In this document: positions 5,260-52,681 of the stretch, in pieces | Layout of the letters: the number at the start of each line of letters is the position of its first letter | How positions within the stretch are numbered: the stretch's first letter is position 1 | Source: Eubacteriales bacterium | GTDB lineage: Bacteria > Bacillota > Clostridia > Oscillospirales > CAG-272 | DNA: 54,098 nucleotides | Direction of reading: 5' to 3' | NCBI GenBank assembly: GCA_045600005.1 | Contig: JAZRXB010000330.1 | Coordinates: forward strand, 1-54,098 | Translations under genes and position numbers: made by a program | Notes under the pieces: generated by a model | The model's input: the letters and a program-made list of their open reading frames with translations, nothing else | What the model was told of the DNA's origin: nothing | Database searches by the model: none

Positions 5260-5443
5260 TAGCCGATTGTTTAATGCTTTAAGATGACAAACGTTATAAT
5301 AAAATCCGTTTTTATGTCGGCTTTGCCGACATAAAAACACCTCTAAGGCGAGCCCTCGCGCCGAGGGGAGCCGACAAAACAACGTTTTGTCGGCGGCGAT
5401 AAGCGCGAGTACCGATTGTAAAACGCAGTTTTACAATCGACTA
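5260..5443 (+). mobile_element. Miniature non-autonomous element (MITE-like), copy 1
   Basis: Terminal inverted repeats TAGCCGATTGT/ACAATCGACTA; flanked by direct repeat AATAACTGAGTA (5248-5259 and 5444-5455); homologous to three other copies. Confidence 0.88.
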
Positions 5444-5472
5444 AATAACTGAGTATATAAGGAGATCATATC

Positions 5473-5850: not shown

Positions 5851-5881
5851 GAGCCGGCCGGTTCATAACTGAGGTGTTCAT

Positions 5882-7060: not shown

Positions 7061-7087
7061 CCGTACAATCCGGAGGAATAACGATCT

Positions 7088-36562: not shown

Positions 36563-36598
36563 AGAAAGTTCCTTTCCGTTTCGGTATATTCCGTTTTC

Positions 36599-36627
36599 AT
36601 TATAACGCGGCGTGTCGCCGGTGTCAA
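36599..36627 (-). promoter_or_regulatory. cysK promoter
   Basis: Perfect TTGACA-17bp-TATAAT on minus strand. Confidence 0.85.
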
Positions 36628-36688
36628 GACCCCTTCCGGCGCAAAGAGGGAAAAATCGCAAATTTCGCACCGAAACCCGGACAGAGAC

Positions 36689-36717
36689 TTGACAAATCGC
36701 CCCCTTCGTGCTAAACT
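36689..36717 (+). promoter_or_regulatory. Promoter of glycyl-radical enzyme operon
   Basis: TTGACA-17bp-TAAACT with TGn extension. Confidence 0.75.
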
Positions 36718-36751
36718 TAAAATAGCCGTTTTGCCGCGACAAAACGAAAAG

Positions 36752-36916
36752 GTGTCGATTGTTAAATGCCTTGAGATGACGAGCGTTATAATAAAAACAC
36801 CTCTAAGGCGAGCAAAGCGAGCCTTCGCGCCGATATGGGGAGAGCCGACAAAACAAATTTTGTCAGCGGCGATAAGCGCGAGTTCCGATTGTAAAACGTA
36901 GTTTTACAATCGTTTT
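36752..36916 (+). mobile_element. MITE-like element, copy 4 (degenerate, first hairpin deleted)
   Basis: Shares GATTGT..AATGC..AGATGAC..GTTATAAT, CACCTCTAAGGCGAGC, GATAAGCGCGAG and the terminal palindrome; eroded flanking repeat AAACGAAAAG / AAACGAATAG. Confidence 0.8.
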
Positions 36917-36943
36917 AAACGAATAGACAAGGAGATATGCCGG

Positions 36944-39478
36944 ATGAGCAGAACCTATTCCGTTGAAACGCCTGAAAAGACTGCCCGCATCGACCGACTG
37001 AAAGCGGCTCTTTATGAAAAAATGCCGCAGATCGAAGCCGACCGCGCCGTGCTTCTGACCGAATCCTATCGGGAAACCGAGGGCGAACCGATCATCACGC
37101 GCCGCGCAAGGGCGTTTGCTCATATACTCGAAAACATCCCGATCACCATCCGAAAGGACGAGCTGATCGTCGGCAGCGCGACGGTTTCGCCGCGCAGCTG
37201 TCAGGTCTTCCCCGAATTTTCCTTTGAATGGCTCGAATCGGAATTTGATACCATCGCCAAGCGCACCGCAGACCCGTTTGAGATCTCGGATGAAACGAAA
37301 AAAACGCTGCACGAGGTCTATCGGTACTGGAAGGGAAAAACGACCAGCGAGCTTGCGGCGTCCTATCTCGCGCCCGAAACGAAGGCCGCGCTTGCCCATA
37401 ATATGTTCACGGTCGGCAACTATTATTACAACGGCGTCGGACACGTCACGGTCGCCTACGACAAGGTGCTGAAGATCGGCTACCGCGGCATCATCGAAGA
37501 AGCGAAGGCGGCGCGCGCAAAGCTCTCCTTCGGCGACCCCGATTACGCTTCCCGGACCGCGTTCCTTGACGCGGTGATCTTAAGCTGCAAGGCGGCGGTC
37601 GGCTACGCGAAGCGCTATGCAAAGCTCGCGCTGGAGCTCTGCGAAAAGGAAACCGACCCGCAGAGAAAGAAAGAGCTTGCCCTGATCGCGCGCAACTGCT
37701 CCCGCGTGCCGGAAAACGGCGCGGAGAGCTTCTGGGAAGCCTGCCAGTCCTTCTGGTTCGTCCAGATGTTATTGCAGACGGAATCGAGCGGTCACTCGAT
37801 CTCGCCCGGACGCTTCGACCAGTATATGTTCCCGTATTATCAGGCAGACCTTGACGCTGGAACGCTCGACCGGTCGTTCGCGCAGGAGCTGATGGACTGC
37901 ATCTGGATCAAGCTCAACGACCTCAACAAGGCGCGCGACGCTTCGTCCGCCGAGGGCTTCGCCGGATACAGCCTGTTCCAGAACCTCATCGCGGGCGGTC
38001 AGACGAAGGACGGCGAGGACGCGACGAACGATCTGTCGTTCATGTGCATCGCCGCGACCGCTCACGTCATGCTGCCGCAGCCGTCGCTGTCGGTGCGTGT
38101 CTGGAACAAATCGCCGCACGAATTTCTCGTCAAGGCGGCGGAGCTGACCCGCACGGGCGTGGGACTGCCCGCTTATTACAACGACGAAGTGATCATCCCG
38201 TCGCTTCTCAGCCGCGGTCTGACGATGGAGGACGCGCGGGACTACAATATCATCGGCTGCGTCGAACCGCAGAAGGCGGCGAAGACGTGGGGCTGGCACG
38301 ACGCGGCGTTCTTCAATATGTGCCGCGTGATGGAGCTGGTCTTCTCGTCCGGCATGGACAAGGGCGAGCAGATCGGCGTGAGGACGCCCGACGTCGCCGG
38401 AATGAAGAGCTTTGACGAGTTCTTCGACGCTTATAAGGCGCAGATGGACTGCATGATCTCGCTGCTGGTCAACGCCGATAACGCGGTCGACCGTGCGCAC
38501 GCCGAGCGCTGTCCGCTGCCCTATCTGTCCTCAATGGTCGAGGACTGCATCGGACGCGGCAAAACGCCGGAGCAGGGCGGCGCGGTCTACAATTTCACCG
38601 GTCCGCAGGGCTTCGGCATCGCCAACGTCGCCGACGCGCTTTACGCCGTCAGAACGCTGGTCTTTGAGGAAAAGAAATTCACGCTCGCCGAGCTGCGGGA
38701 CGCGCTGGCGGCAAACTACGGAAAGAACGCGCTGACCGCAGACACGGCGGCGTCGGTCGCGGTCGAGACGGCAAAAGCGCTCGCGGACGCCGGACAGAAG
38801 GTCGACGGGGAGACGATCGCCTCCATCGTGCGCACCCTCACCGAAACCGGTCTGAGCGATGAGAAACAGAAGCGCTATGCCGGGATCCGCGAGATGATCC
38901 TTGACGTTTCCAAGTACGGCAACGATATCGCCGAGGTCGACGCGCTGGCGCGTGAAGCGGCTTATACCTACACTAAGCCGCTCGAAACCTACCGCAATCC
39001 GCGCGGCGGACAGTTCCAGGCGGGACTTTATCCGGTTTCGGCGAACGTGCCGCTGGGTGCGCAGACCGGCGCGACGCCCGACGGACGCTATGCGTACACT
39101 CCGGTCGCCGACGGCGTTTCGCCGAGCGCCGGACGCGACACGCACGGTCCGACTGCTTCCTGCAATTCGGTCTCGAAGCTCGACCACGGCATCGCGTCGA
39201 ACGGCACGCTGTTCAATATGAAATTCCATCCGTCGGCTCTGGCGGGAACGTCCGGCATCGAATGCTTCGTCGCGCTCGTGCGCGCCTACTTCGATCAGAA
39301 GGGAAGCCACATCCAGTTCAACGTCGTCAGCCGTGAAACGCTCCGCGACGCGCAGGCTCATCCCGAAAAGTATCAGAGCCTTGTCGTCCGTGTGGCAGGG
39401 TACAGCGCACTGTTCGTCACGCTGTCGAAATCCCTCCAGGACGATATCATCAACCGCACCGAACAGTCGAAGTTCTGA
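36944..39478 (+). CDS. Glycyl radical enzyme, probable B12-independent 1,2-propanediol dehydratase
   Basis: GCVEP cysteine loop, RVAGYSA glycyl motif, internal helical insertion; BMC and fuculose-aldolase context. Confidence 0.85.
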   Translation: MSRTYSVETPEKTARIDRLKAALYEKMPQIEADRAVLLTESYRETEGEPIITRRARAFAHILENIPITIRKDELIVGSATVSPRSCQVFPEFSFEWLESEFDTIAKRTADPFEISDETKKTLHEVYRYWKGKTTSELAASYLAPETKAALAHNMFTVGNYYYNGVGHVTVAYDKVLKIGYRGIIEEAKAARAKLSFGDPDYASRTAFLDAVILSCKAAVGYAKRYAKLALELCEKETDPQRKKELALIARNCSRVPENGAESFWEACQSFWFVQMLLQTESSGHSISPGRFDQYMFPYYQADLDAGTLDRSFAQELMDCIWIKLNDLNKARDASSAEGFAGYSLFQNLIAGGQTKDGEDATNDLSFMCIAATAHVMLPQPSLSVRVWNKSPHEFLVKAAELTRTGVGLPAYYNDEVIIPSLLSRGLTMEDARDYNIIGCVEPQKAAKTWGWHDAAFFNMCRVMELVFSSGMDKGEQIGVRTPDVAGMKSFDEFFDAYKAQMDCMISLLVNADNAVDRAHAERCPLPYLSSMVEDCIGRGKTPEQGGAVYNFTGPQGFGIANVADALYAVRTLVFEEKKFTLAELRDALAANYGKNALTADTAASVAVETAKALADAGQKVDGETIASIVRTLTETGLSDEKQKRYAGIREMILDVSKYGNDIAEVDALAREAAYTYTKPLETYRNPRGGQFQAGLYPVSANVPLGAQTGATPDGRYAYTPVADGVSPSAGRDTHGPTASCNSVSKLDHGIASNGTLFNMKFHPSALAGTSGIECFVALVRAYFDQKGSHIQFNVVSRETLRDAQAHPEKYQSLVVRVAGYSALFVTLSKSLQDDIINRTEQSKF

Positions 39479-39482
39479 CGCC

Positions 39483-40286
39483 ATGGAAATGAATCGGACA
39501 GAACAGGACCTTGCGGTCAAGGGGAGGATTTTCGACATCCAGAAATTCTCCATCCACGACGGACCGGGCATCCGGACGATCGTGTTTCTGAAGGGCTGCG
39601 TGCTGCGCTGCCGCTGGTGCTGCAACCCCGAATCGCAGCATTACGCCGTCGAAACCATGATCCAGAACGGCAGACCGAAGACGGTCGGCTATGATACGAC
39701 GGTCGGCGAGGTCATGGAGGAAGTCGTCAAGGATATGCCCTATTACCGGAGAAGCGGCGGCGGCGTCACGCTTTCGGGCGGCGAATCGCTCTGTCAGCCG
39801 GATTTTGCGGCGGCGCTTCTGCGGACCTGCCGGGAATACGGCATCAATACCGCCATCGAGACGACGGCGTGTATGCCGTATGAGATCATCGAACGGTTCC
39901 TGCCGCTCATCGACGTCTTTCTGATGGACATCAAGCACACCGACAGCGAAAAGCACGAGCGCTTCACGACCCTGCGCAACGAGCTGATCCTCGACAACGC
40001 ACGGAAGCTGGCGCGCGACGCGAAGGAGCTGGTCATCCGTGTGCCGACCATCCCGACCTTCAACGATACGGAGGAGGAGATCGCTTCCATCGCCCGCTTT
40101 GCGAAGTCGCTCGGCACGGTGAAGCAGATGCACCTTCTGCCCTATCACCGGCTGGGCTACGACAAGTACGTCGGGCTGGGACGCGAGTACGGCATGGGCG
40201 ACCTGCCGTCGCCGACGCCGGCCAAGATGGAGATCCTCAAACGCGCCGCCGAACGGGAAGGCATGACCGTCGTTTTAGGCGGATGA
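39483..40286 (+). CDS. Glycyl-radical activating enzyme (radical SAM, no ferredoxin insert)
   Basis: HDGPGIRT, CxxxCxxC (CVLRCRWC), GGVTLSGGE, LLPYH. Confidence 0.93.
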   Translation: MEMNRTEQDLAVKGRIFDIQKFSIHDGPGIRTIVFLKGCVLRCRWCCNPESQHYAVETMIQNGRPKTVGYDTTVGEVMEEVVKDMPYYRRSGGGVTLSGGESLCQPDFAAALLRTCREYGINTAIETTACMPYEIIERFLPLIDVFLMDIKHTDSEKHERFTTLRNELILDNARKLARDAKELVIRVPTIPTFNDTEEEIASIARFAKSLGTVKQMHLLPYHRLGYDKYVGLGREYGMGDLPSPTPAKMEILKRAAEREGMTVVLGG

Positions 40287-40321
40287 AAAAGCAGAGCAAT
40301 CAACCGATAAGAGGCACATAA

Positions 40322-40693
40322 ATGTACGGGATAGAAGACAACGAAAACAAACAGCGCATCATACAGGAGATCGTCCCCGGCAAGCAGATCACGCTTGCGC
40401 ACATCATCGCCGCGCCCGACCCGATCCTCTACCGCAAGCTCGGACTGAATCCGGAGGTCGACTACGCGCGCGCCGCCATCGGCGTCGTCACGATGTCGCC
40501 CGCTGAATACGCGATCATCGCCGCCGATCTTGCGCTCAAGAATTCCGGCTCGGAGCTTGGCTTCGTCGACCGGTTCAGCGGGACGCTGATCCTCACCGGT
40601 CCGCTGTCCGACGTGGAGGCGGCGGTCCGCGCGGTCATGGATTACGCGGTCGGAACGCTCGGCTTCACGGTCTGCGACATTACGAAGACCTGA
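40322..40693 (+). CDS. Permuted BMC shell protein (EutS/PduU type)
   Basis: RIIQEIVPGKQITLAHII...GFVDRFSGTL...CDITKT. Confidence 0.92.
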   Translation: MYGIEDNENKQRIIQEIVPGKQITLAHIIAAPDPILYRKLGLNPEVDYARAAIGVVTMSPAEYAIIAADLALKNSGSELGFVDRFSGTLILTGPLSDVEAAVRAVMDYAVGTLGFTVCDITKT

Positions 40694-41118
40694 TGAAGCG
40701 CCTGATTCTGATCGGTCGGAGCGAAGCGGGCAAAAGCACGCTGATTCAGGCGCTCCGGCACGAGGAGCTGCGGTACGTCAAGACGCAGGCGGTGGATTTT
40801 ACCTCCTCGATCATCGACACACCCGGCGAGTACGCCGAAACGAAGCGGCTGGGCGGCGCGCTCGGCGTGTATTCCTACGAATCCGACGTCGTGGGACTGC
40901 TCGTTTCGGCGACCGAGCCGTACTGTCTGTTTCCGCCGAACATCGTCGGTATGGCGACCCGCCCGGTCATCGGCATCGTCACCAAATGCGACAGTCCGCA
41001 CGCTGACCGTAAGCTCGCGGCGCGCTGGCTCGAAAACTGCGGCTGCGAGAGGATCTTCTTCACCAGCAGCGTTTCGGGAGAGGGCGTCGACGCGCTGATT
41101 TCTTATCTGAATCGCTGA
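40693..41118 (+). CDS. EutP/PduV-family P-loop protein
   Basis: GRSEAGKST, KTQAV, DTPGEY, VTKCD. Confidence 0.92.
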   Translation: MKRLILIGRSEAGKSTLIQALRHEELRYVKTQAVDFTSSIIDTPGEYAETKRLGGALGVYSYESDVVGLLVSATEPYCLFPPNIVGMATRPVIGIVTKCDSPHADRKLAARWLENCGCERIFFTSSVSGEGVDALISYLNR

Positions 41119-41176
41119 AAACAACATCACAGACGAATCAAATCAAAATAAAACAACATATTTTTGTGGTTTTCTA

Positions 41177-41205
41177 TTGACATTTGACGGGAGTTGTGAT
41201 AGAAT
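41177..41205 (+). promoter_or_regulatory. Internal promoter of BMC locus
   Basis: TTGACA-17bp-TAGAAT with TGn extension. Confidence 0.78.
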
Positions 41206-41289
41206 GATAACAGGGAAAGTCTCGGTCGAAAAGACCGGAGCATCATATAAGTCCATCAATTCTGCAAACACATAAAGGAGAAAACTGTC

Positions 41290-42087
41290 ATGTCTGAGTA
41301 TGAGATCAAAAAACAGATCTGCGAGATCGGCAAGCGCATCTACAACAAGGGAATGGTCGCCTCCAACGACGGCAACATCTCGGTCAAGCTGAACGACAAC
41401 GAATTCCTCTGCACCCCGACCGGCGTCAGCAAGGGCTTCATGACCCCTGAATTCATCTGCAAGGTCGACGCACAGGGCAAGGTCCTTCAGGCTTACGAAG
41501 GCTTCAAGCCGTCCTCCGAGATCAAGATGCATATGCGCGTTTACAAGGAAAGACCCGACGTCAACGCGGTCGTTCACGCTCATCCGATGTATGCGACCAG
41601 CTTCGCCATCGCAGGCATCCCGCTGACCGAGCCGATCATGCCGGAAGCCGTCATCGCACTGGGCTGCGTTCCGATCGCCGAGTACGGCACGCCCTCGACC
41701 GAGGAAATCCCGGACGCCGTTTCCAAGTATCTCCAGCACTTCGACGCCGTTCTGCTCGCAAACCACGGCGCGCTTTCGTTCTCCGACTCGCTTCTGAACG
41801 CTTATCATAAGATGGAATCGGTCGAATTCTACGCACAGCTGCTCTATCAGGCAAAGATGCTCGGCGGCCCGAAGCAGCTCTCCGAAGAGCAGGTCCAGCG
41901 CCTGTACGAGATCAGAAGACAGTTCGGTCTCAAGGGCAAGCATCCGGCAGACCTCTGCCAGAACCTCAAGGACGGCAAGCCCTCCTGCCATAACTGCGGC
42001 GGCTGCGGCAAGACCGAATCCTGCGGCGACGCGAACGCCGACCTGATCGCCGAGATCACCAGGAAGGTTCTCGCAAACCTGAAATAA
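41290..42087 (+). CDS. Class II aldolase (L-fuculose/rhamnulose-phosphate aldolase-like) with C-terminal encapsulation peptide
   Basis: DGNIS, PSSEIKMH, VVHAHP, LANHG; tail DLIAEITRKVLANL. Confidence 0.88.
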   Translation: MSEYEIKKQICEIGKRIYNKGMVASNDGNISVKLNDNEFLCTPTGVSKGFMTPEFICKVDAQGKVLQAYEGFKPSSEIKMHMRVYKERPDVNAVVHAHPMYATSFAIAGIPLTEPIMPEAVIALGCVPIAEYGTPSTEEIPDAVSKYLQHFDAVLLANHGALSFSDSLLNAYHKMESVEFYAQLLYQAKMLGGPKQLSEEQVQRLYEIRRQFGLKGKHPADLCQNLKDGKPSCHNCGGCGKTESCGDANADLIAEITRKVLANLK

Positions 42088-42105
42088 TCCGAACGGAGAA
42101 GCATC

Positions 42106-42690
42106 GTGAGCTTTGATTTTGACCGGCTGATCGGACAGGTCGCCGCCGCTGCCGCGGCAGAACAGCCGAAAGCCGAAGCTCCCAAAGGCTCTGTCCCGCC
42201 CGACGGGTCTCCCCGGAAACCCGAAGCGTCTGCCGGTGAGAAAGCCGCGCCGCGCACCGGTTTTGCCGGAGCGGACCGCATGACGTTAAAGCTCGCGCAT
42301 CTTCTGATGGCGGCGGTCGAACGTCAGGCGGCGGACATGGGCGTGAACGCGGTCGTCGCGGTCGCGGACGCCGGGGGAAACACGCTCTCGGTCGACTGCA
42401 TGGACGACGCATTTCTCGCAAGCTACGACATCGCGGTCAACAAGGCGTACACATCGGTCGCGCTGAAAATGCCGACCGCCGATCTTGCACAGCTTGCCGC
42501 GCCGGGCGGCTCGCTCTACGGCATCCAGAACACCAACGGCGGACGCATCGTGATCTTCGGCGGCGGACAGCCTCTGAGATCGAAGGGCGTCATCATCGGC
42601 GGCGTGGGCGTGAGCGGCGGAACGGCGGCGGAGGACACCTTCCTCGGCGAGTTTGCCAGACGGGTGTTCGAGGAGCTTGTGAAAGCGTAA
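42106..42690 (+). CDS. GlcG/HbpS/PduO-C-terminal-like heme-binding protein with N-terminal extension
   Basis: VAVADAGG, IAVNKAYTS, IFGGGQPL, GGVGVSGG...ED. Confidence 0.85.
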   Translation: MSFDFDRLIGQVAAAAAAEQPKAEAPKGSVPPDGSPRKPEASAGEKAAPRTGFAGADRMTLKLAHLLMAAVERQAADMGVNAVVAVADAGGNTLSVDCMDDAFLASYDIAVNKAYTSVALKMPTADLAQLAAPGGSLYGIQNTNGGRIVIFGGGQPLRSKGVIIGGVGVSGGTAAEDTFLGEFARRVFEELVKA

Positions 42691-42723
42691 GGACTATTAC
42701 CTCAACAGAAAAGAGAGAAAACA

Positions 42724-43929
42724 ATGGATATCAAATCCGCACAGATCGAAGAGATCGTCAAGCAGGTTTTAGCGAACATGAACGGTTCCGCTTCCGCGCC
42801 CGCAAAGAGCGCAGGCGGAAGCATCCCGAAGACCGCCCGTGTCGCCGTGCTGACGAAGCTCGAAAATTTTGAACTGAAAGAATACCCGATCCCGGAGCTG
42901 GGCGACGACGACATTCTCGTCAAGGTCGAGGGCTGCGGCGTCTGCGGCACCGACGCGCACGAATTCAAGCGCGACCCCTTCGGTCTCATCCCCGTCGCTC
43001 TCGGTCACGAGGGGACAGGCGAGATCGTCAAGATGGGCAAGAACGTCAAGAAGGACAGCGCGGGCAAGGACCTCAAGGTCGGCGACAAGGTCGTCACCTG
43101 CATGATCTTCAAGGACAACCCCGACATCACGATGTTCGACCTGAACAAGCAGAACGTCGGCGGCGCGGACGTTTACGGTCTGCTTCCCGACGACGACGTA
43201 CATCTGAACGGCTGGTTCTCGGATTATCTGTTTGTCCGCGGCGGCTCGACGATCTTCAACGTCAGCGACCTCGACCTCGACAGCCGGATCCTGATCGAAC
43301 CGTGCGCCGTTCTGATCCACGCGGTCGAACGCGCGAAGACCACCGGCATTCTCCGCTTCAACAGCCGTGTCGTCGTACAGGGCTGCGGACCGATCGGTCT
43401 GATCTGCATCGCCGTTCTGCGCACGATGGGCGTCGAGAACATCGTCGCCGTCGACGGCAACGAAAAGCGTCTTGACTTCGCAAAGAAGATGGGCGCGGGC
43501 CACACCGTCAACTTCAAGGATTTCCCCGGCGGCATCGAAGCGCTCACGAACGGCGTGAAGGATGCGTTCGGCGGCTACTTCGCTGATTTCGCGTTCCAGT
43601 GCACCGGCTCTCCCGCTGCGCATTCCAACATCTACAAGTTCATCCGCAACGGCGGCGGACTCTGCGAGCTTGGCTTTTTCATCAACGGCGGCGACGCATC
43701 GATCAACCCCCATTTCGACATCTGCTCGAAGGAGATCACGGTCGTCGGCTCGTGGGTCTACACGCTGCGCGACTACGCAACGACGTTTGACTTCCTCAAG
43801 AGAGCGCAGGCCATCGGTCTGCCGATGAAGGAGCTCATCACGCACAAGTTCCCGCTCGAAGAGATCAACGAGGCGCTCAAGACCAACCTCAGCCAGGCAG
43901 GTCTCAAGATCGCCGTCGTCAACAGATAA
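42724..43929 (+). CDS. Zn-dependent alcohol dehydrogenase with N-terminal encapsulation peptide
   Basis: CGVCGTD, GHEGTG, GCGPIG; N-terminal QIEEIVKQVLANM. Confidence 0.9.
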   Translation: MDIKSAQIEEIVKQVLANMNGSASAPAKSAGGSIPKTARVAVLTKLENFELKEYPIPELGDDDILVKVEGCGVCGTDAHEFKRDPFGLIPVALGHEGTGEIVKMGKNVKKDSAGKDLKVGDKVVTCMIFKDNPDITMFDLNKQNVGGADVYGLLPDDDVHLNGWFSDYLFVRGGSTIFNVSDLDLDSRILIEPCAVLIHAVERAKTTGILRFNSRVVVQGCGPIGLICIAVLRTMGVENIVAVDGNEKRLDFAKKMGAGHTVNFKDFPGGIEALTNGVKDAFGGYFADFAFQCTGSPAAHSNIYKFIRNGGGLCELGFFINGGDASINPHFDICSKEITVVGSWVYTLRDYATTFDFLKRAQAIGLPMKELITHKFPLEEINEALKTNLSQAGLKIAVVNR

Positions 43930-43941
43930 CGGCAGGGCGTC

Positions 43942-44256
43942 ATGGCACAGGCAATCGGAATGATCTCGGTCTACGGACTGGCGGCGGCGTTCGCAGCGCT
44001 TGACGCGGGCTGCAAGGCTGCCGCTGTGACCGCCGAACCGTTCGACAAGAACAAGCCTGCTCACGCGGATTCGCTCCCCGTCCCGCTGATCGTGCTGATC
44101 AAATTCCGCGGCACGGTCGAGGACGTGAAGGCTGCGGTCGAAGCGGCTGCCGAAGCGGCAGGGCGCGTGACCAGCGTGATCACGCAGAGCATTATCGCAA
44201 ATCCCAGCGAGGGCGCTGAAAAAATGATGAAGATCAGCGCGCTTGACAAAAACTGA
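43942..44256 (+). CDS. BMC-H shell protein (divergent)
   Basis: AIGMI...ALDAGCKAA...[11 protein letters not shown]...IANP. Confidence 0.85.
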
Positions 44257-44279
44257 TAATATTACGGAGGATAGAACTC

Positions 44280-44558
44280 ATGGCACAGGAAGCACTCGGT
44301 ATGATCGAAACCCGCGGCATTACCGCCGCAATCGAAGCGGCTGACACGATGGTCAAGTCCGCAGAAGTCACTCTTATCGGCACCGAAAAGATCGGTTCCG
44401 GTCTCGTATCCGTCATGGTGCGCGGCGACGTCGGCGCAGTCAAGGCAGCCGTCGAAGCAGGCAGCGCAGCAGCAGCCAAGCTCGGCGAGGTCATCGCTTC
44501 TCATGTAATCCCGCGTCCGCACGCTGACGTGGAGAAGATCCTGCCGAAGCTCAAATAA
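44280..44558 (+). CDS. BMC-H shell protein (PduA/EutM type)
   Basis: ALGMIETRG...GDVGAVKAA...HVIPRPH. Confidence 0.96.
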
Positions 44559-44572
44559 ACCGGTGAGCCGAT

Positions 44573-44956
44573 ATGAAAGCACTCGGTTTTGTTGAGGTGG
44601 TCGGCGTTGTCGCGGCGGTCGACTGCATCGACATCATGTGCAAGAGCGCAGCGGTGTCTCTTGTCACATGGGAACGCAAGCTCGGCGGACGGCTGGTCAC
44701 GGTCATCGTGCAGGGCAGCGTTTCGGACGTCACCGAAGCGGTCGAATGCGCGAAGCGTTCGTGCATTAAAACGCCGGCGGCGGCAGTCGTCATCGCCAAT
44801 CCGCACGAGGAAGTGTGGAAGATGCTCGAAGGCAGCGTCCTTCGTCATCACATCGAGCTGACCGGAGACGAAGCGCTCCCCGGTACGGCGGAAGAAAAAG
44901 CGGCGGAGGCTCCGGTACCGGAAAAGCCCCGCGCAAGAACGAAAAAATCAAAATAA
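44573..44956 (+). CDS. BMC-H shell protein with C-terminal tail
   Basis: ALGFVE...DIMCKSA...GSVSDV...IANPH plus basic tail. Confidence 0.88.
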   Translation: MKALGFVEVVGVVAAVDCIDIMCKSAAVSLVTWERKLGGRLVTVIVQGSVSDVTEAVECAKRSCIKTPAAAVVIANPHEEVWKMLEGSVLRHHIELTGDEALPGTAEEKAAEAPVPEKPRARTKKSK

Positions 44957-44986
44957 TACGACTCGATTGACAGGAGGAACACTACT

Positions 44987-45265
44987 ATGGCACAGGAAGC
45001 TCTCGGCATGATTGAAACCCGCGGTCTCGTCGCAGCGATCGAAGCGGCAGACGCTATGTTAAAGGCAGCAAACGTTGAACTCGTCGGCACCGAAAAGATC
45101 GGTTCCGGACTCGTATCCGTTATGGTACGCGGCGACGTCGGCGCAGTCAAGGCAGCCGTCGAAGCAGGCAGATCGGCAGCGCAGAACCTCGGCGAAGTCA
45201 TCGCAACGCACGTCATTCCGCGTCCGCATACCGACGTGGAAAAGATCCTTCCGCAGCTCAACTGA
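44987..45265 (+). CDS. BMC-H shell protein (PduA/EutM type)
   Basis: Paralog of 44280-44558. Confidence 0.96.
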
Positions 45266-45416
45266 CAGCCCGGCTGATCGGAGGTCCGTTTCCGGGAACC
45301 GTCCCATGCCGTGTCCGGCGTAAGCCGAACGGCCGGTCATGTCCCGGTCCCCGGAAACAGCCGTCCTGACCGGACGGCGGATTTCACGTGTCTGCATGGC
45401 AGGGAAAGGAATCAGA

Positions 45417-45683
45417 TTGATTATCGGAAGAGTGGTGGGCAGCGTTATCGCTACCCGTAAAAACAGTCAGTTGGTCGGTCAGAAGCTGATGATCGTAAGA
45501 CCGCTCGACGGAGGGGATCACAGCGCCGTCGTTGCCATCGACAATGTGGGAGCCGGAATCGGCGAGGTCGTGCTGGTCGCCACGGGCAGCGCGGCGCGGG
45601 TCGGCTGCGGGCTGGAAAAAGCCCCGGTAGACGCCGCCATCGTCGGTATCGTGGACAACGAAAGCGGATTGGAGTGTATATAA
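45417..45683 (+). CDS. BMC-P vertex protein (EutN/CcmL)
   Basis: TTG start after AAAGGA; IIGRVVG...ATRK...DNVGAGIGE...GSAAR...DAAIVGIVD. Confidence 0.92.
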   Translation: MIIGRVVGSVIATRKNSQLVGQKLMIVRPLDGGDHSAVVAIDNVGAGIGEVVLVATGSAARVGCGLEKAPVDAAIVGIVDNESGLECI

Positions 45684-45686
45684 CAG

Positions 45687-47015
45687 ATGGAACTTTCTCA
45701 GCTGGTTGAAGCGATGAGGAACGGCGGCGTCGCCGGAGCAGGCGGCGCGGGTTTCCCGTCCTATGCCAAGCTCGATAAGAGAGCGGATACCATTATCCTG
45801 AACTGCGCGGAATGCGAGCCGTTATTGAAGCTCCATCGTCAGGTTCTGGAAACCTACGCGGTCGAGATCATGACCGCTTTGAAGGTGATCGCCGAGGCGG
45901 TCGAAGCGAAGGACGTCATCATTGCCGTCAAGCCCTCCTACACCGGAGCGGTCAAGGCAGTGAAGGCGCATCTCGCCGACTTTCCGATGATGAAGATCGG
46001 TCTTCTGCCGGAGATCTATCCGGCGGGCGACGAAGTGATCACGATCTACGAAACGACGGGACGTGTCGTCGCACCCGGCGCGCTCCCGATCACACAGGGC
46101 GTCACCGTCTTCAACGTCGAGACGGCGCTGAACGTCTACAAGGCTCTGAACGGTCTCGGACCGGTCACGAGCAAGTATATCACCATTGCCGGTGAGGTGA
46201 AGCATCCAATCACGCTGAGGGCTCCGCTCGGCATCACCTACGGTGAGCTGATCGAGCTGGCGGGCGGCGCAACGGTCGCCGATCCGGTGCTGGTCGGCGG
46301 CGGTCCGATGACCGGCCGCATCGTCACCGCGTCCGACGTTGTGACCAAGACCTCCAACGCGGTCCTGGTCATGCCGAAGAACGCCTACATCATTCAGAAA
46401 AAGACCACCCCCATCCGCATCAACATGAACCGCGCGATGGCGGCGTGCTGCCAGTGCCGGATGTGCACCGACCTCTGCTCCCGCAATCTGCTGGGACATC
46501 CGATCGAGCCGCATAAGTTCATGCGCGCGATCTCCAACGGTCAGACCGCCGACACCATGGCGTATCTCAATACCTTCTTCTGCTCCTCCTGCGGACTGTG
46601 CGAGATGTATTCCTGCGGACAGGGACTTTCCCCCGCTTCGCTCATCGCGCAGACCAAGGGCGCGCTCCGCAAAAACGGCGTGACGCCTCCGAAGGACGCC
46701 GTCCTGAAGCCGGTCGATCCCGGACGCGATTATCGCCGCGTTCCGATGGAGCGCCTGACCGCGCGTCTCGGACTGACGAAGTACAACGTTCCCGCGCCTC
46801 TGAAGGACGAGCTTGTCGACGCGGACAGCGTGAAGATCATGCTGTCTCAGTGCATCGGCGCACCTTCCGCGGCAGCCGTAAAGGTCGGCGATACCGTTCG
46901 GATCGGTGACGTGATCGGCGCGGCGCCCGAAGGCAAGCTCGGCACGCCGGTTCATGCTTCGCTGAACGGCACGGTCGCGGAAGTGACCGACAGGTATGTC
47001 GTCATCCGCAAATAA
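45687..47015 (+). CDS. pduS: PduS/RnfC-like flavin Fe-S oxidoreductase
   Basis: GAGGAGFP, NCAECEP, YPAGDE, GGPMTG, CCQCRMCTDLC, CSSCGLC. Confidence 0.9.
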   Translation: MELSQLVEAMRNGGVAGAGGAGFPSYAKLDKRADTIILNCAECEPLLKLHRQVLETYAVEIMTALKVIAEAVEAKDVIIAVKPSYTGAVKAVKAHLADFPMMKIGLLPEIYPAGDEVITIYETTGRVVAPGALPITQGVTVFNVETALNVYKALNGLGPVTSKYITIAGEVKHPITLRAPLGITYGELIELAGGATVADPVLVGGGPMTGRIVTASDVVTKTSNAVLVMPKNAYIIQKKTTPIRINMNRAMAACCQCRMCTDLCSRNLLGHPIEPHKFMRAISNGQTADTMAYLNTFFCSSCGLCEMYSCGQGLSPASLIAQTKGALRKNGVTPPKDAVLKPVDPGRDYRRVPMERLTARLGLTKYNVPAPLKDELVDADSVKIMLSQCIGAPSAAAVKVGDTVRIGDVIGAAPEGKLGTPVHASLNGTVAEVTDRYVVIRK

Positions 47016-47036
47016 TGGAGAAAGGGTTGAAGAATC

Positions 47037-47585
47037 GTGAATAAAGCAATCGGTATGGTCGAATTCAAGACGGTCTCCAGCGGCGTCCGCGCGGCAGACC
47101 TGATGATCAAGACCTCCAGCGTGGAAATCATGCAGGCGTCGGTCGTCTGTCCCGGCAAGTACATCGTGCTGATCACCGGCGACCTCAGCGCCGTACAGGC
47201 TTCGGTCGAAGCGGCAAAGCTCCAGAACGGCGAACAGTGCATCGACAGCTACGTGCTGGGCAATCCGGCAGAGGACCTGTTCCCCGCCATTTACGGAAGC
47301 GTTCCGGTCGAGAACGCGAAATCGCTCGGCGTCCTCGAGACCTTCTCGGTTCCGTCCTGCATCGCAGCGGCGGATACGGCGGCGAAGACTTCCGACGTCA
47401 CGCTCATCGAGCTCCGTCTGGCAAGAGGTATGTGCGGCAAATCCTACGTGTTCCTCACCGGCGACGTGGCGGCTGTCACGGCGGCGATCGATCACGCGAA
47501 GGAAATGATCGGCGGCGACGGGATGTTTCTTGACAGCACCGTCATCCCCAGCCCCGACAAGAGCCTCTGGGCAAGCATCCTTTAA
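47037..47585 (+). CDS. pduT: Tandem BMC-T shell protein (PduT type)
   Basis: Two BMC domains; CPGKY with Fe-S-ligating Cys; follows pduS. Confidence 0.88.
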   Translation: MNKAIGMVEFKTVSSGVRAADLMIKTSSVEIMQASVVCPGKYIVLITGDLSAVQASVEAAKLQNGEQCIDSYVLGNPAEDLFPAIYGSVPVENAKSLGVLETFSVPSCIAAADTAAKTSDVTLIELRLARGMCGKSYVFLTGDVAAVTAAIDHAKEMIGGDGMFLDSTVIPSPDKSLWASIL

Positions 47586-47654
47586 TCAAATGAGACCGGC
47601 AGCTCTGTACGCAGGGCTGCCGGTCAGAATGAATCTCGGAGGGAGAAGCTCGCT

Positions 47655-48413
47655 ATGCTCCCAATGGAACGGAAAAACGAGATCCTGTCGAGACTGATGC
47701 TCGACGGCAAGGTCGTCGTCAGCGACCTTGCGGAAGCGTTTCAGGTGACGGAGGAGACCATCCGCCGCGACCTTGACAAGCTCGAAAAGGAAGGTCTCGC
47801 GAAAAAAACCTACGGCGGCGCGACCCGCAGCGACAACATCAACGTCGAGCTGCCTTATACCGTGCGCAAGCAGGAAAACGTCGAATCGAAGAAAGCCATC
47901 GCCGCAAAGATCAGCGACATGATCTCGGACGGCGACTGCATCCTGCTCGACGCAAGCACGACCGCGCTCTTTACACTGCGCGGGCTGTACAGCAAAAACA
48001 ATCTCACGCTGATCACCAATTCCATCGAAATGCTGCTCGACATCCCGCCGAAAAGCGGCTGGCGGGTGATCTCGACGGGCGGAGAGATCGCGCAGAGCAG
48101 TCTGTCCTTTGTCGGACCGCAGGCGCAGCGGACGGTCTCGACCTACTGCGTCGACCTCGCGGTGATCTCCTGCAAGGGACTGGACCGCGAAAAAGGGCTG
48201 ACCGATACCAGCGAAGCGACGGCGGAGATCAAGCGGACCTTTCTGCGCTCCGCGAAAAAGATCGTGGTCGGCGCGGACAGCTCGAAGTTCGACCGGGTGT
48301 CCTTTGTCCGGTTTGCGGACTTTTCGGATATTCACGCCGTCGTGACCGACCGGGAGCCGGACGCGGCGTGGAGGACGTTTCTTGACGAGCGCGGCGTAGC
48401 GCTCTACTATTGA
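47655..48413 (+). CDS. DeoR/GlpR-family transcriptional regulator
   Basis: VTEETIRRDL, YGGA, LDASTT, ITNS, ADSSKF. Confidence 0.93.
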   Translation: MLPMERKNEILSRLMLDGKVVVSDLAEAFQVTEETIRRDLDKLEKEGLAKKTYGGATRSDNINVELPYTVRKQENVESKKAIAAKISDMISDGDCILLDASTTALFTLRGLYSKNNLTLITNSIEMLLDIPPKSGWRVISTGGEIAQSSLSFVGPQAQRTVSTYCVDLAVISCKGLDREKGLTDTSEATAEIKRTFLRSAKKIVVGADSSKFDRVSFVRFADFSDIHAVVTDREPDAAWRTFLDERGVALYY

Positions 48414-48432
48414 TTTGTGAGGAACCTGCATC

Positions 48433-49560
48433 ATGCAGAAATTCAAAATGAAAACCGAGGTCTGCTTCGGTGACAACGCGCTGTCGGCTCTGGGAGAGAT
48501 CCGGGCGAAAAGCGCGGCGATTTTCACCGATGCGTTCCTTGCGAAAAACGGAACGGCCGACCGGGTGGCTAAGCTCCTGACCGGCTGTGCCGAGGTCAGC
48601 ATCTATTCGGGCATCCGTCCCGATCCGCCGGTCGAGCTGATCGCGGACGCACTGCGTTTCCTGCTTGACGCGGATGCAGAGGTCGTTGTCGCGGTCGGCG
48701 GCGGTTCGTCGATCGACGCGGCGAAGTCCACCACGCTCATCGCGCGTCAGAAGACCGGGAAGGAGCTGCCGCTCATCGCCGTCCCGACGACCAGCGGAAC
48801 CGGCTCCGAGGTCACGAAGTTCGCGGTCATCACCGATTCCGAAGCGGGCGTGAAGTATCCGCTCGTGTCGGACGAGCTTCTGCCGGTCAAGGCGATCTTA
48901 GATGGAGAACTCGTGAAGAGCGTTCCGCCGCAGATCACCAGCGATACCGGCTTTGACGTCATCACACACGCGCTCGAAGCGTACATCTCGACGGCGGCGA
49001 ACGATTTCTCGGACGCGCTGGCGGAGAAGGCGCTGGAGCTTGCGTTCCGGTGGCTGCCGGTCGCGTATGCGGACGGAAACAATGCCGAAGCGCGCGAAAA
49101 AATGCACAATGCGTCCTGTCTTGCCGGTATGGCGTTCAGCGAGGTCAGTCTCGGCGTGAACCACGGCATCGCGCACGCACTGGGCGCGCACTTCCACATC
49201 CCGCACGGACGTGCGAACGCGATGGTCCTGCCTTATGTCATGGCGTTCAACGCCGAGCTTGACCGTGACGGCGACTGCAAAGCCGCGCGCCGGATGGCGG
49301 TCATTGCCGGACGGCTGGGACTTCCCGCCGACACGCCGAAGATGGGTGCAACCGCTCTGGTGGCGCTCATCAGCGAGATGGGCAAGCAGCTCAGCGTTCC
49401 GCAGAGCTTTGCCGCCTGCAAGGTCAGCCGCGCCGATTATGAGGCGGCGAAGGCGCATATCATGGCGTGTGCCTGCCGTGACGCCTGCACGGCGACCAAT
49501 CCGCGTCCCGTCACGGAAGCGGACGTTGCCGGAATCCTTCGGAATCTGGAACAGTTCTGA
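48433..49560 (+). CDS. Iron-containing alcohol dehydrogenase (PduQ/FucO-like)
   Basis: GGGSSIDAAK, PTTSGTGSE, DVITHALE, HGIAH, PHG. Confidence 0.9.
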   Translation: MQKFKMKTEVCFGDNALSALGEIRAKSAAIFTDAFLAKNGTADRVAKLLTGCAEVSIYSGIRPDPPVELIADALRFLLDADAEVVVAVGGGSSIDAAKSTTLIARQKTGKELPLIAVPTTSGTGSEVTKFAVITDSEAGVKYPLVSDELLPVKAILDGELVKSVPPQITSDTGFDVITHALEAYISTAANDFSDALAEKALELAFRWLPVAYADGNNAEAREKMHNASCLAGMAFSEVSLGVNHGIAHALGAHFHIPHGRANAMVLPYVMAFNAELDRDGDCKAARRMAVIAGRLGLPADTPKMGATALVALISEMGKQLSVPQSFAACKVSRADYEAAKAHIMACACRDACTATNPRPVTEADVAGILRNLEQF

Positions 49561-49566
49561 ATAAGC

Positions 49567-49612
49567 AAAATGACCTCGTGTGCGGTGTCGTACCGCCCGC
49601 GAGGTCATTTTT
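49567..49612 (+). terminator. Terminator of BMC operon
   Basis: AAAATGACCTCG / CGAGGTCATTTT plus T run. Confidence 0.85.
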
Positions 49613-49630
49613 ATTGTGCCAAAAGCGAAG

Positions 49631-49666
49631 GAACGCCGACCGAAACGGTAATTTCGGTCGGCGTTC
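49631..49666 (-). terminator. Terminator of infB operon
   Basis: GAACGCCGACCGAAA / TTTCGGTCGGCGTTC 15-bp stem. Confidence 0.75.
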
Positions 49667-49694
49667 TCCGATTATTGCGTGTTCAGGCGCGGGT

Positions 49695-52652
49695 TCAATC
49701 CTTTTTGACTTCTTCCATCACGAAGGCTTCGAGAATATCGCCTTCCTTGATGTCGTTGAAGCGTTCCAGACCGATACCGCATTCAAAGCCCTGCATGACT
49801 TCCTTCGCGTCGTCCTTGAAGCGCTTGAGCGAGGAGATCTTGTCTTCAAAGATGACCACGCCGTCGCGGACCACGCGGATCTGCGCGTTTCTCGAGACCT
49901 TGCCGTCCTGCACGTAGGAACCGGCGATGGTGCCGACGTTCGGAACGTGAATGGTCTGACGAACCTCGGCGTGACCGAGCAGGTTCTCGACGAAGGTCGG
50001 CGACAGCATACCCTTCATAGCCGCTTCGATCTCTTCGATGCACTCGTAAATGATGCGGTAGGTACGGATATCAACGCCCTGCTTTTCGGCGGTGTCAAGC
50101 GCGTTCTTGTCAGGACGCACGTTGAAGCCGACGATCAGCGCGTTGGAGGCGGCCGCGAAGGTGACGTCGCCCTCGGTGATGCCGCCGACTGCGGAATGGA
50201 TGATGTTGACGCGGACTTCTTCGTTCGACAGCTTTTCGAGCGAAGCCTTGACCGCTTCGACGGAACCGCCGACGTCTGCCTTGACGATGATGTTCAGGTC
50301 CTTGATACCGCCTGCGATCTGGTTGAACAGATCGTTCAGGTTGACCTTTGCGCTTGCCTTGAACTGTTCTTCCTTCGTCTCGCTGCGGCGCTTTTCGGCA
50401 AGCTCGCGTGCCATGCGCTCGTCCTCGACTGCCGCGAATTCATCGCCTGCTTCGGGGACCTCGGCAAGACCGATGATCTCGACCGGGACCGAAGGACCGG
50501 CGGACTTGACCAGACGTCCCTTATCGTCTGTCATCGCACGGACACGGCCGACTGCCGTACCGGCAATGACGATATCGCCGTTGTTCAGCGTACCGTTCTG
50601 GACCAGAACGGTTGCGACCGGTCCGCGTCCCTTGTCGAGCTTTGCTTCGATGATCAGACCCTTCGCGCGGCGGTTCGGGTTGGCTTTCAGCTCCTTCATG
50701 TCGGCGACGAGCAGGAGGTTTTCGAGCAGGTCGTCCAGACCGAAGCCGGTCAGTGCGGAAACGGGGACGCATACGACGTCGCCGCCCCATTCTTCGGGAA
50801 CGAGGTTGTACTTGGCCAGCCCCTGCTTGACGGCTTCGGGGTTGGCGCTCGGCTTATCCATCTTGTTGATGGCGACCACGATGTCGATGCCGGCAGCCTT
50901 GGCGTGGTTGATCGCCTCAACGGTCTGCGGCATGATGCCGTCGTCCGCTGCGACGACGAGGATCGCGATATCGGTCGACTTCGCGCCGCGCGCACGCATG
51001 GCGGTGAACGCCTCGTGACCGGGCGTGTCGAGGAAGGTGATCTCACGGTCGCGGACCTTGACGCGGTAAGCGCCGATGGCCTGCGTGATGCCGCCTGCTT
51101 CGCCGGAGGTGACGTTGGTGTGGCGGATCGCGTCAAGAAGGGAGGTCTTGCCGTGGTCGACGTGACCCATGACGCAGACGACGGGGCTTCTCGGAACGAG
51201 ATTTTCCTCGGCGTCTTCGGATTCGTCGAACAGCTTTTCTTCGATGGTGACGACGACCTCGCGCGTGACCTTCGCGCCCAGCTCGTCGGCGACGAGATAA
51301 GCGGTATCGTAGTCGATCGTTTCGTTGACCGACGCCATGACGCCCATGACCATCAGCTTCTTGATGACCTCGCCAGCCGTCATCTTAAGACGGGACGCAA
51401 GCTCGCCGACCGTGATCTCGTCCGGAACGGTGATCTGGAGCGGCTGCTTCTTTGCCTTTTCGACGCCCTGCTTGCGCATTTTTTCCATTGCCATGCGCTC
51501 TTTTTCACGCTGACCGGAATAATCGCGGGTGTTCTGCTTTTTCAGCTTCTGCTTTTCGCCGCGCGCATCCTTGGAGGATTCGGGGACGAAGTTTTCAAGA
51601 CGCTCGTCGTACTTTTCAAGATCGACGGTCGTGGTGCGGGTATCGACGACGCGGCTCTCGCCGGGATTCTTCGGCGCGTTCTGACCGCGGGTGTAGGTGT
51701 GGACGGGAGCGGGCTTCGGCGTGCTGGAACGTCCGGAACCGCCGCTGTCCTTGTCGCGGAAGCCGCCGTTCTGCGGACGGGACTGACCGTTATTATCGCG
51801 GAAGCCGCCGTTGTTCTGCGGACGGGGCTGACCGTTGTTGTCGCGGAAGCCGCCGTTATTCTGAGGACGGGGCTGACCGTTGTTGTCACGGAAGCCGCCG
51901 TTGTTCTGCGGACGTGGCTGACCGTTATTATCGCGGAAACCGCCGCCATTCTGGGAACGGGACTGACCGTTGTTATCGCGGAAGCCGCCGCCATTCTGCG
52001 GACGGGACTGAGCGGGCGCACCGGTACCGTTCTGCGGACGGGACTGACCGCTGCCATCGCGGAAACTGCCGCCATTCTGCGGACGGTTCTGTGCGCCGTT
52101 GTTCTGCGGACGGACAGACGTCTGCGCGGCAGCCTTGGGCGCATCCGTGGTCTTTGCGGGTTCGGTCTTGGGCGCTTCGGCGGTCTTAGCGGGTTCAGCC
52201 TTGGGCGCATCCGCGGTCTTTGCGGGTTCAGTCTTGGGTGCTTCGGCAGTCTTTGCGGGTTCAGCCTTGGGTGCATCTGTGGTCTTGGCGGGTTCAGCCT
52301 TGGGCGCTTCGGCAGTCTTGGCAGACTCAGCCTTGGGCGGCTGCTTGACCGGCTCGGATTTTACAGGCGCGGACTTCGCAGGCTCTTCCGCCTTCGGCGC
52401 TTCGGGCTTGGGAGCGGCGGGTTTTACCGCGATCTTCGTTTTGCCGTCGAGGTAATCGCCGATGTTTTCGATCTGATGGCGTTCGGTGATGCGGCTCATG
52501 ACGAGGTTGAATTCGTCGGGCGTCAGAGCGCCGGAATGGGTTTTGCCGGTGATGCCGACTTCAACGACGACGTCGAGAACGTCTTTATTCTTTAAGCCAA
52601 GCTCCTTGGCAAGAGTGGAAATGCGGACCTGATTTTTCTGGTTTGCTGCCAT
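49695..52652 (-). CDS. infB: Translation initiation factor IF-2
   Basis: [28 protein letters not shown]; long low-complexity N-terminus. Confidence 0.98.
51754..52110 (-). repeat. About 45-bp coding tandem repeats in infB
   Basis: (N)[14 protein letters not shown] units. Confidence 0.85.
52131..52328 (-). repeat. Six 33-bp coding tandem repeats in infB
   Basis: [11 protein letters not shown]-type 11-aa units. Confidence 0.88.
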
Positions 52653-52681
52653 GTTGTATCAATCATCCTTTCAGAGAGGCG

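Follow-up and report, generated by a model that had tools for sequence, protein, structure and literature searches.

The 54,098-bp stretch of DNA analysed here (the window) is the entire contig C330 of the genome of a gut bacterium of the Eubacteriales (G000; a 3.76-Mb assembly in 377 contigs, 92.8% complete), and carries a bacterial microcompartment (BMC) locus of the glycyl-radical type GRM5 that encodes neither an aldehyde dehydrogenase (AldDH) nor a PduL phosphotransacylase and ends with an iron-type alcohol dehydrogenase (Fe-ADH). We favour, with a probability of roughly 0.6, a functional GRM5-type compartment from which the oxidative, CoA-dependent half (AldDH and PduL) has been removed, with a PduQ-like Fe-ADH in its stead, and whose lumen would be reductive only, yielding propanol without propionate. 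In the accepted model of these organelles the compartment keeps NAD(H) and CoA of its own, recycled within the shell by three enzymes: an acylating AldDH, an alcohol dehydrogenase (ADH) and a phosphotransacylase. Of this triad the window encodes only ADHs, together with the signature enzymes.

The locus is a single rightwards operon of 16 genes (Table 1) between a PALP-family gene and infB, and because the window is a whole contig it is not clipped by a contig end. The original prediction had listed these genes, placed them between cysK and a convergent infB, and claimed that AldDH and phosphotransacylase are missing with no space left for them. Open reading frame (ORF) calls, Pfam and NCBIfam agree with the gene list, all of it on the forward strand at the positions given, the boundary genes are a divergent cysteine-synthase-like PALP-family gene and infB, and neither PF00171 (AldDH) nor PF06130 (PduL) has any match among the locus ORFs. 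The deoR-like and Fe-ADH genes are 20 bp apart and the 135 bp between the Fe-ADH gene and infB are filled by a hairpin with a 16-bp stem, leaving no space for AldDH or PduL; the hairpin probably terminates transcription from both sides and closes the operon on the right. Only three sequencing runs contain small shares (0.09-0.19) of the window, with contigs over positions 36000-53000 that are short (150-640 bases), derive from related strains and do not cross the Fe-ADH/infB junction; no RNA runs are among the listed sequencing runs matching the window.

The locus has the features by which GRM5 is recognised: a glycyl radical enzyme (GRE) of the appropriate clade with its insertion, an adjacent activase, a class II aldolase, PduS with PduT, zinc-type ADH (Zn-ADH), DUF336 and DeoR genes, and BMC-H, BMC-P and BMC-T shell genes. 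PduS and PduT are both present in 57/57 GRM5 loci (Ferlez 2019, PMC6325248), and DUF336, Zn-ADH and DeoR are described as GRM5 accessory genes (Axen 2014, PMC4207490). Given that the DUF336 and Zn-ADH genes are standard parts (Axen 2014; Petit 2013, PMC3557285), the locus is unusual only in lacking AldDH and PduL and in carrying an Fe-ADH gene. The GRM5 core AldDH (PF00171, PduP-like, with an encapsulation peptide, EP) is found neither in the locus nor in the G000 assembly, and the EP-bearing PduL (PF06130) is absent from the locus, the one copy elsewhere (contig C102) being untagged.

The GRE aligns end to end in a single phmmer alignment (1278 bits) with the diol dehydratase of Roseburia inulinivorans (PDB 5I2A); it includes an internal insertion of ~60 residues that is absent from glycerol dehydratase, which aligns in two stretches only, and it retains the GCVEP and RVAGYSA motifs. 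Three other proteins of the operon are longer than their domains. The aldolase has ~80 extra C-terminal residues ending in an EP-like helix (by sequence reading and Pfam domain limits), the DUF336 protein ~58 extra N-terminal residues comprising a helix and an Ala/Pro/Lys-rich linker, and the Zn-ADH ~40 extra N-terminal residues with an EP-like helix and linker; as short amphipathic helices joined to low-complexity linkers, all three appear to resemble encapsulation peptides. FucA-type NCBIfam matches to the aldolase fall under the cut-off, and the Zn-ADH is 78-86% identical to the Zn-ADHs in related GRM5 loci. The Fe-ADH is the sole such gene in G000, and one of its homologues is labelled PduQ by NCBI. 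The shell set has PF00936 in six genes, including the tandem PduT, and PF03319 in one. By sequence reading, PduT keeps the pore cysteine motif CPGKY (compared with the motif in PMC6325248), and PduS keeps a Gly-rich motif and two Cys clusters. The activase ORF opens at 39333, and its likely start is the Met at 39483, directly after the GRE stop; its relatives are 261-269 aa long. The BMC-P relatives have 87-100 aa and PF03319 begins at residue 28 here, and the true start of this gene may be an internal Met.

Canonical GRM5 loci, as in R. inulinivorans and Clostridium phytofermentans, have the same gene repertoire from GRE to DeoR, in equal order up to the DUF336 gene. They carry a PduP-like AldDH gene between the DUF336 and Zn-ADH genes and a PduL gene before BMC-P, whereas the window has neither and places an Fe-ADH gene after DeoR. 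Canonical strains yield propanol and propionate (PMC3557285), as opposed to the propanol alone that we predict here; in Petit 2013 (PMC3557285) the Zn-ADH is assigned as the propanol dehydrogenase and there is no clear lactaldehyde reductase. A second arrangement in related Clostridia (type B, below) has the gene order of the window from GRE to DeoR, followed by AldDH and PduL, sometimes with acetate kinase, and no Fe-ADH (G063, G064 and G036), where the window has only Fe-ADH.

A physiological parallel is offered by Clostridium perfringens without PduP, which converts 1,2-propanediol to 1-propanol with propionate not detected, in its authors' view an NADH sink coupled to sugar fermentation (PMC11992839). 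Like the window it pairs a diol dehydratase with ADH and has no acylating AldDH; unlike the window it uses the B12-dependent PduCDE and not a GRE, and takes up external propanediol instead of splitting a sugar phosphate in the shell. The Fe-ADH of the window resembles PduQ of the Salmonella Pdu compartment, and is itself devoid of an encapsulation peptide. The Salmonella PduQ renews the NAD+ used by PduP within the shell, which it is said to enter via PduP; the window has no PduP with which to bind or recycle. By the naming rule of Sutter 2021 (PMC8217296) a shell locus lacking AldDH is a 'BUF' (unknown function), a label that hardly fits this locus, whose pathway is readable from its genes; the files of the same study list a type 'GRM5like' in Halanaerobium. 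No description of an AldDH-less GRM5 was found in the literature searched, although Zarzycki 2015 and the Sutter type descriptions, which lie outside that search, may bear on this; the search took in passages from Axen 2014, Ferlez 2019, Sutter 2021, Ravcheev 2019, Asija 2021 and a 2026 GRE review.

Aldehyde oxidisers and PduL in the source genome

PF00171 has five matches in G000, in about four genes. One is a 480-aa AldDH on C247, within a sugar-acid cluster (SDR, LacI, DHDPS-like and IlvD/Edd-like genes); the matches on C28 and C143 are halves of one AldDH gene split at contig ends, and those on C296 are two pieces of one ProA-like gene. The C247 and C28/C143 enzymes are MdlD-like and non-acylating according to NCBIfam, and no PduP/EutE-type NCBIfam model is among the hits listed for the PF00171 genes of this genome. 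A PduP-type AldDH query from a GRM5 locus of the same family (G036) retrieves from G000 the ProA-like gene only (E 1.9e-11), and two further PduP-type tblastn queries have no match. Neither a DmpF-type acylating dehydrogenase (PF09290) nor an AOR-type aldehyde:ferredoxin oxidoreductase (PF02730) was found in G000.

PF06130 identifies a single gene in G000, of 192 aa, on C102 between a Clp-protease-like gene and a GGGtGRT gene. Its domain begins at residue 7 and there is no in-frame start codon upstream, leaving no possible N-terminal extension. PduL proteins of this class are 72-82% identical across genomes and occur as one copy in 28/32 genomes of the genus, while the GRE is carried by 6/31 (G000 and five of the 30 others searched), and classical Pta (PF01515) is found in 0/32. 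The PduLs of BMC tails and satellite contigs are 51-56% identical to the C102 protein and have 21-29 extra N-terminal residues. Judged by its sequence and distribution, the C102 PduL is the housekeeping phosphotransacetylase of the genus and not satellite cargo, because it is untagged, is present in 28 genomes though few have the GRE, and no Pta occurs in the 32.

Two other observations in G000 concern shell and GRE genes. A lone PduB-like tandem-BMC gene lies at C21:8264-9187 (reverse strand; locus L020), scoring 308 bits against TIGR04501 (cut-off 310) and having an N-terminal extension of ~80 residues; it sits between GH39-like and WbsX-like genes, far from the GRM5 locus and with no enzyme neighbours of interest. 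Homologues occur in 4/14 other GRM5-bearing genomes (G062, G257, G284 and G061, all with the D-type tail defined below) and in 0/4 of the B-type genomes among these. Another GRE gene (PFL-like, 673 aa), paired with a separate activase gene, is found at C247:110245-113000 (L160:13246-16001), a few kb from an L-fucose isomerase gene, and is probably a pyruvate formate-lyase (PFL).

Recurrence and history of the locus tail

Eighty loci, each surrounding one of the GREs most similar to that of the window (66-76% identity), were compared by blastp with the window proteins and with reference AldDH, PduL and acetate kinase (Ack) sequences. Tails could be typed in the 45 that reach far enough, the other 35 being cut earlier or consisting of GRE-activase pairs without shell genes. 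The canonical type A, with AldDH after DUF336 and PduL before BMC-P, accounts for 27/45 and is mostly from Lachnospiraceae; nine are type B (PduT-DeoR-[Ack]-AldDH, three of them cut after Ack), seven are type C (PduT-AldDH-BMC-PduL), and two are type D (PduT-FeADH). The D tail is also present in three more species of the window's genus (G002, G011 and G012), with 14 kb past the Fe-ADH gene of G002 containing no AldDH or PduL; the locus of G019 is cut after the aldolase and its tail state is not visible.

A scan of 400 genomes, sampled evenly across the order, with the window's Fe-ADH gave seven strong homologues, 7/7 at GRM5 tails. Four have the exact arrangement of the window, PduT-DeoR-FeADH (G337, G210, G143, G411), two have PduT-FeADH (G257, G284), and one (G262, contig C70, L192; genome 69% complete) reads DeoR-Ack-AldDH-PduL-FeADH, the only tail with both modules. 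In G337, G210, G257, G284 and G143 the entire D-type locus, GRE through Fe-ADH, was confirmed. Altogether the PduT-[DeoR]-FeADH tail is found in 12 genomes of at least three families (G000, G002, G011, G012, G061, G062, G337, G210, G143, G411, G257 and G284), in the same 15-16-gene architecture and at 51-91% protein identity. All 12 carry Fe-ADH, and the three B-type tails readable past PduL carry AldDH-PduL and no Fe-ADH. A metagenome scan with the Fe-ADH, of which the best 21 of 80 loci were annotated, gave one D-type locus (L197, 58% identical, with the same identities as G284); most of the other annotated matches are ADHs from Eut-like or other BMC loci (42-54% identity).

A PduP-type AldDH is absent genome-wide from 9/12 D-tail genomes, four of these 93-97% complete. 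Matches to AldDH queries are ProA-like, weaker or lacking in G000, G002 (91% complete), G012 (95%), G062, G337 (96%), G257 (97%) and G284 (93%), and G210 (97%) has an AdhE-like gene only, at 31% identity. A partial AldDH in G011 (79% complete) was considered as cargo and rejected: it is 33-36% identical to PduP types, adjoins a CoA-transferase gene and has no extension.

These results bear on what the original prediction had offered as its own checks. It called for a whole-genome search with PF00171 plus EP and PF06130, which has turned up no acylating AldDH in G000 and, as the sole PduL, the untagged housekeeping protein; it named a satellite locus with tagged AldDH and PduL as evidence to the contrary, and none was found in the G000 assembly; and it allowed that close relatives might all retain the two enzymes, whereas same-genus genomes with the locus also lack both. 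Judged from these genomes, the missing AldDH and PduL are not strain-specific decay, and the description of the locus as an atypical BMC subtype is justified by the recurrence of its gene set in other families.

The D state is scattered on a GRE tree of 34 rows (IQ-TREE, LG+G4) that contains all loci of known tail with six type-A and five type-C representatives, clipped loci being excluded. At least six state changes are required on this tree, a count that tail-module recombination could inflate, and a single D clade is rejected (log-likelihood difference 324, approximately unbiased (AU) test p 8e-102), with the tested group having been chosen after a first tree (FastTree, 85 GREs) had been viewed. 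The sister group of the window GRE consists of B-type loci from other families (L022, L023 and L049/G052; support 95 by the Shimodaira-Hasegawa-like approximate likelihood ratio test), and the same-genus D loci form a separate GRE clade together with L045 and G257. The Fe-ADH tree broadly matches the GRE tree, having the same two major groups, which fits repeated loss of AldDH-PduL from an ancestor with both modules and not repeated gain of Fe-ADH. These trees fit an old tail with both modules followed by repeated loss of one or the other, and the G262 tail may resemble the ancestral state. Either way, the main locus has shed its oxidative module on several occasions and stayed without it, which argues for function and not decay.

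An empty cysK-infB site was looked for in 31 congeners, and 0/29 cysK loci have infB or a GRE gene within 1.5 kb; the synteny is not conserved. CysK identity across the genus is 63-76%, indicating that the genus is deep, and so the 73-74% GRE identity to congeners alone is no sign of transfer.

Two side observations arose from these comparisons. Contig C42 of G062 (L142, 1853 bp) carries a PduT-FeADH pair that hardly differs from the one in G061 (Fe-ADH tree branches 0 and 0.003), beside the different D-type locus that G062 has of its own, and this bin may be mixed or hold two strains. Loci L053, L061, L069, L071, L073, L082 and L085 are GRE-activase pairs (67-69% identical, e.g. Blautia) with no match to any shell or cargo gene of the window over the following 7-9 kb, which suggests that the propanediol dehydratase is also unencapsulated, or has its shell genes elsewhere, in such loci.

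Predicted pathway and competing explanations

G000 encodes RhaA with an adjacent FGGY kinase, and FucI, and the aldolase of the operon is its sole FucA/RhaD-type enzyme, the second PF00596 gene being AraD-like. Since the only aldolase of this type is the one predicted to be encapsulated, lactaldehyde should arise within the shell. We infer from gene content the order of reactions, the assignment of the ADHs to steps, the lumenal position of the Fe-ADH, the product spectrum and the route of NADH. Cytosolic RhaA/RhaB and FucI would provide ketose-1-phosphates, which the encapsulated aldolase would cleave in the lumen to dihydroxyacetone phosphate and L-lactaldehyde; one ADH would reduce lactaldehyde to 1,2-propanediol, the GRE would dehydrate this to propanal, and the other ADH would reduce propanal to 1-propanol, which would leave the shell. 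With a propanediol dehydratase GRE, two ADHs and no aldehyde oxidiser, the C3 branch should end there, and no propionyl-CoA, propionyl-phosphate or propionate would be formed.

Such a lumen would use two NADH per C3 unit and regenerate none. Without a lumenal source, reducing power would have to enter, either by NADH/NAD+ exchange across the shell or as electrons via PduT and PduS, an import that is put forward in Ferlez 2019 (PMC6325248) as a hypothesis only. G000 contains RnfD, PFL, two hydrogenase-like genes and two acetate kinases. At the level of the cell glycolysis (GAPDH) could provide one NADH and the oxidation of pyruvate, through ferredoxin and Rnf, a second equivalent, and the conversion of fucose to acetate, CO2 (or formate) and 1-propanol would then be balanced with no H2 needed. 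Relative to canonical GRM5, the ATP from propionyl-phosphate would be forgone for a larger electron sink. Even canonical GRM5 uses more NADH than it regenerates if lactaldehyde reduction takes place in the lumen, which makes this locus an extreme case of an imbalance already known and not an entirely new difficulty. It is possible, though we are doubtful, that we are dealing with a CoA-free, AldDH-free metabolosome, apparently reached repeatedly in evolution as main loci lost AldDH-PduL and retained a PduQ-like Fe-ADH, and, if the PduT pore cluster and PduS reduce NAD+, with the first electron-sink compartment wired to the cytosolic ferredoxin pool.

A well-understood pathway encapsulated without two of its three core enzymes, and recurring in several lineages, would be a natural test case for the cofactor-recycling model. 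It would also be a natural system for asking whether a BMC shell lets NAD(H) or electrons through quickly enough to sustain flux, and for examining the role of PduS and PduT in B12-independent BMCs, which Ferlez 2019 (PMC6325248) calls an open question. The pathway predicts 1-propanol and not propionate as the product that some gut Clostridia form from fucose and rhamnose, which bears on how much propionate is estimated to come from mucin and plant glycans, and the locus would offer a minimal natural blueprint for engineered alcohol-making compartments.

Several points weigh against a propanol-only compartment, in addition to the choice of test group and the recombination already mentioned for the GRE tree. 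The Fe-ADH domain spans residues 8-371 of 375, so that the protein has no terminal EP-like extension and may be located in the cytosol. The midpoint potential of PduT from a PDU system, the sole measured PduT value in the literature searched, is +99 mV (PMC6325248), unfavourable for NAD+ reduction unless this PduT differs. The two non-acylating AldDHs of G000 could oxidise propanal or lactaldehyde that escapes. Three of the 12 D-tail genomes keep an N-terminally extended AldDH and PduL on a satellite contig: in G061 this is a 5,056-bp contig with AraC, BMC-H, DeoR, AldDH and PduL genes, in G143 the AldDH, a tandem-BMC protein and PduL lie among unrelated genes, and in G411 AldDH and PduL are about 1 kb apart on one contig. 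These are satellites of exactly the kind that would make the window part of a normal GRM5, its own satellite having been missed in assembly or binning, and the relatives bearing them have the same main locus; at 92.8% completeness and in 377 contigs, the G000 assembly could conceivably lack one that the organism has. We nonetheless regard a missed satellite as improbable, given that three queries and the Pfam model find no PduP-type match in G000 and that the same blank in G002, G012, G337, G257, G284, G062 and G011, with only the AdhE-like gene in G210, makes a chance miss in all of them very unlikely.

The escape of aldehydes leads to a different account, in which the lumen is reductive only and propanal or lactaldehyde that leaves it is oxidised by cytosolic non-acylating AldDHs to propionate or lactate, with some NADH and no substrate-level ATP. 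The two MdlD-like genes and an Fe-ADH without EP, hinting at some cytosolic C3 chemistry, are consistent with this; it is unlikely all the same, since the setting of the C247 enzyme in a sugar-acid cluster suggests another role, escape runs contrary to the accepted purpose of the shell, and the Fe-ADH has its nearest relatives outside GRM5 (~50% identity) among ADHs from Eut and other BMC loci. NAD+ reduction or aldehyde oxidation might instead be supplied by another protein of the locus, either the HbpS-like DUF336 protein, which bears an EP-like extension and has no assigned role, or PduS acting on a C3 intermediate, PduS having been proposed as a 'propanediol oxidoreductase' by Petit 2013 (PMC3557285). 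Both are equally present in loci with AldDH and PduL and are hence no specific replacements, which makes this highly improbable. We know of no chemistry connecting DUF336 with aldehyde oxidation. The loss of two core genes could also mark a decaying or silent GRM5 remnant, and to this we assign the slightest of chances: all 16 genes are intact and tightly spaced, the GRE catalytic motifs, the PduS and PduT FeS motifs and the EP-like extensions are kept, the architecture is maintained across the 12 D-tail genomes, which represent at least three families, with the identities given above, and the encapsulated aldolase is the sole FucA/RhaD-type enzyme in a genome that has RhaA, RhaB and FucI.

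Features of the window

The coordinates of the operon, its boundary genes and the associated signals are listed in Table 1.

Table 1. The GRM5 operon of the window, with flanking genes and predicted signals
Feature	Position	Strand	Evidence and remarks
PALP-family (cysteine-synthase-like), pyridoxal phosphate-dependent gene	35633..36742	-	PF00291, E 2.4e-80; left boundary, divergent, outside the system
Promoter-like site upstream of GRE gene	36689..36717	+	Consensus scan 10/12 plus extended -10 TG; pattern match only
GRE (B12-independent 1,2-propanediol dehydratase type)	36944..39478	+	PF02901 and PF01228
GRE-activating radical-SAM enzyme	39483..40286	+	PF04055 and PF13353; TIGR02494, 301 bits (cut-off 174)
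EutS/PduU-like BMC shell protein	40322..40693	+	PF00936; NF012012 EutS, E 6.9e-29
EutP/PduV-family small GTPase	40693..41118	+	PF10662, E 1.9e-46
Internal promoter-like site in the eutP/aldolase gap	41177..41205	+	11/12 consensus; pattern match only
Class II aldolase (fuculose/rhamnulose-1-phosphate type)	41290..42087	+	PF00596, residues 9-185 of 265, E 1.4e-51
HbpS-like/DUF336 protein	42106..42690	+	PF03928, residues 59-178 of 194
Zn-ADH, medium-chain	42724..43929	+	PF08240 and PF00107; domain from about residue 41-60
BMC-H shell protein	43942..44256	+	PF00936
BMC-H shell protein, major hexamer type	44280..44558	+	PF00936, E 1.8e-30
BMC-H shell protein with ~40-residue C-terminal extension	44573..44956	+	PF00936, residues 3-77 of 127
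BMC-H shell protein, major hexamer type	44987..45265	+	PF00936, E 7.7e-32
BMC-P pentamer (EutN/CcmL)	45339..45683	+	PF03319, residues 28-106
PduS-type flavo-FeS protein (Nuo51 FMN/NADH domain, SLBB, 2x[4Fe-4S], RnfC_N)	45687..47015	+	PF01512, PF10531, PF13534, PF13375
PduT-type tandem-BMC shell protein	47037..47585	+	PF00936 x2, E 1.2e-46
DeoR-family regulator	47655..48413	+	PF08220 and PF00455
Fe-ADH (PduQ/EutG-like)	48433..49560	+	PF00465 and PF25137, residues 8-371 of 375
Hairpin, 16-bp stem, between convergent Fe-ADH gene and infB	49631..49666		Terminator scan
infB (IF-2)	49695..52652	-	PF11987, PF00009, PF04760; right boundary, convergent, outside the system

Two further regions of the window lie to the left of the operon. 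Positions 4845-8485 (forward strand) hold genes for a Na+-translocating biotin decarboxylase (gamma subunit of the oxaloacetate decarboxylase (OAD) type, biotin carrier, OAD beta and carboxyltransferase), of the oxaloacetate or methylmalonyl-CoA type. Positions 32641-35547 (forward strand) encode a 968-aa surface protein with DUF285 repeats, BspA-type leucine-rich repeats, Listeria-Bacteroides repeats and an SLH domain, and a second SLH protein, of 1111 aa, is encoded on C247 of the same genome.

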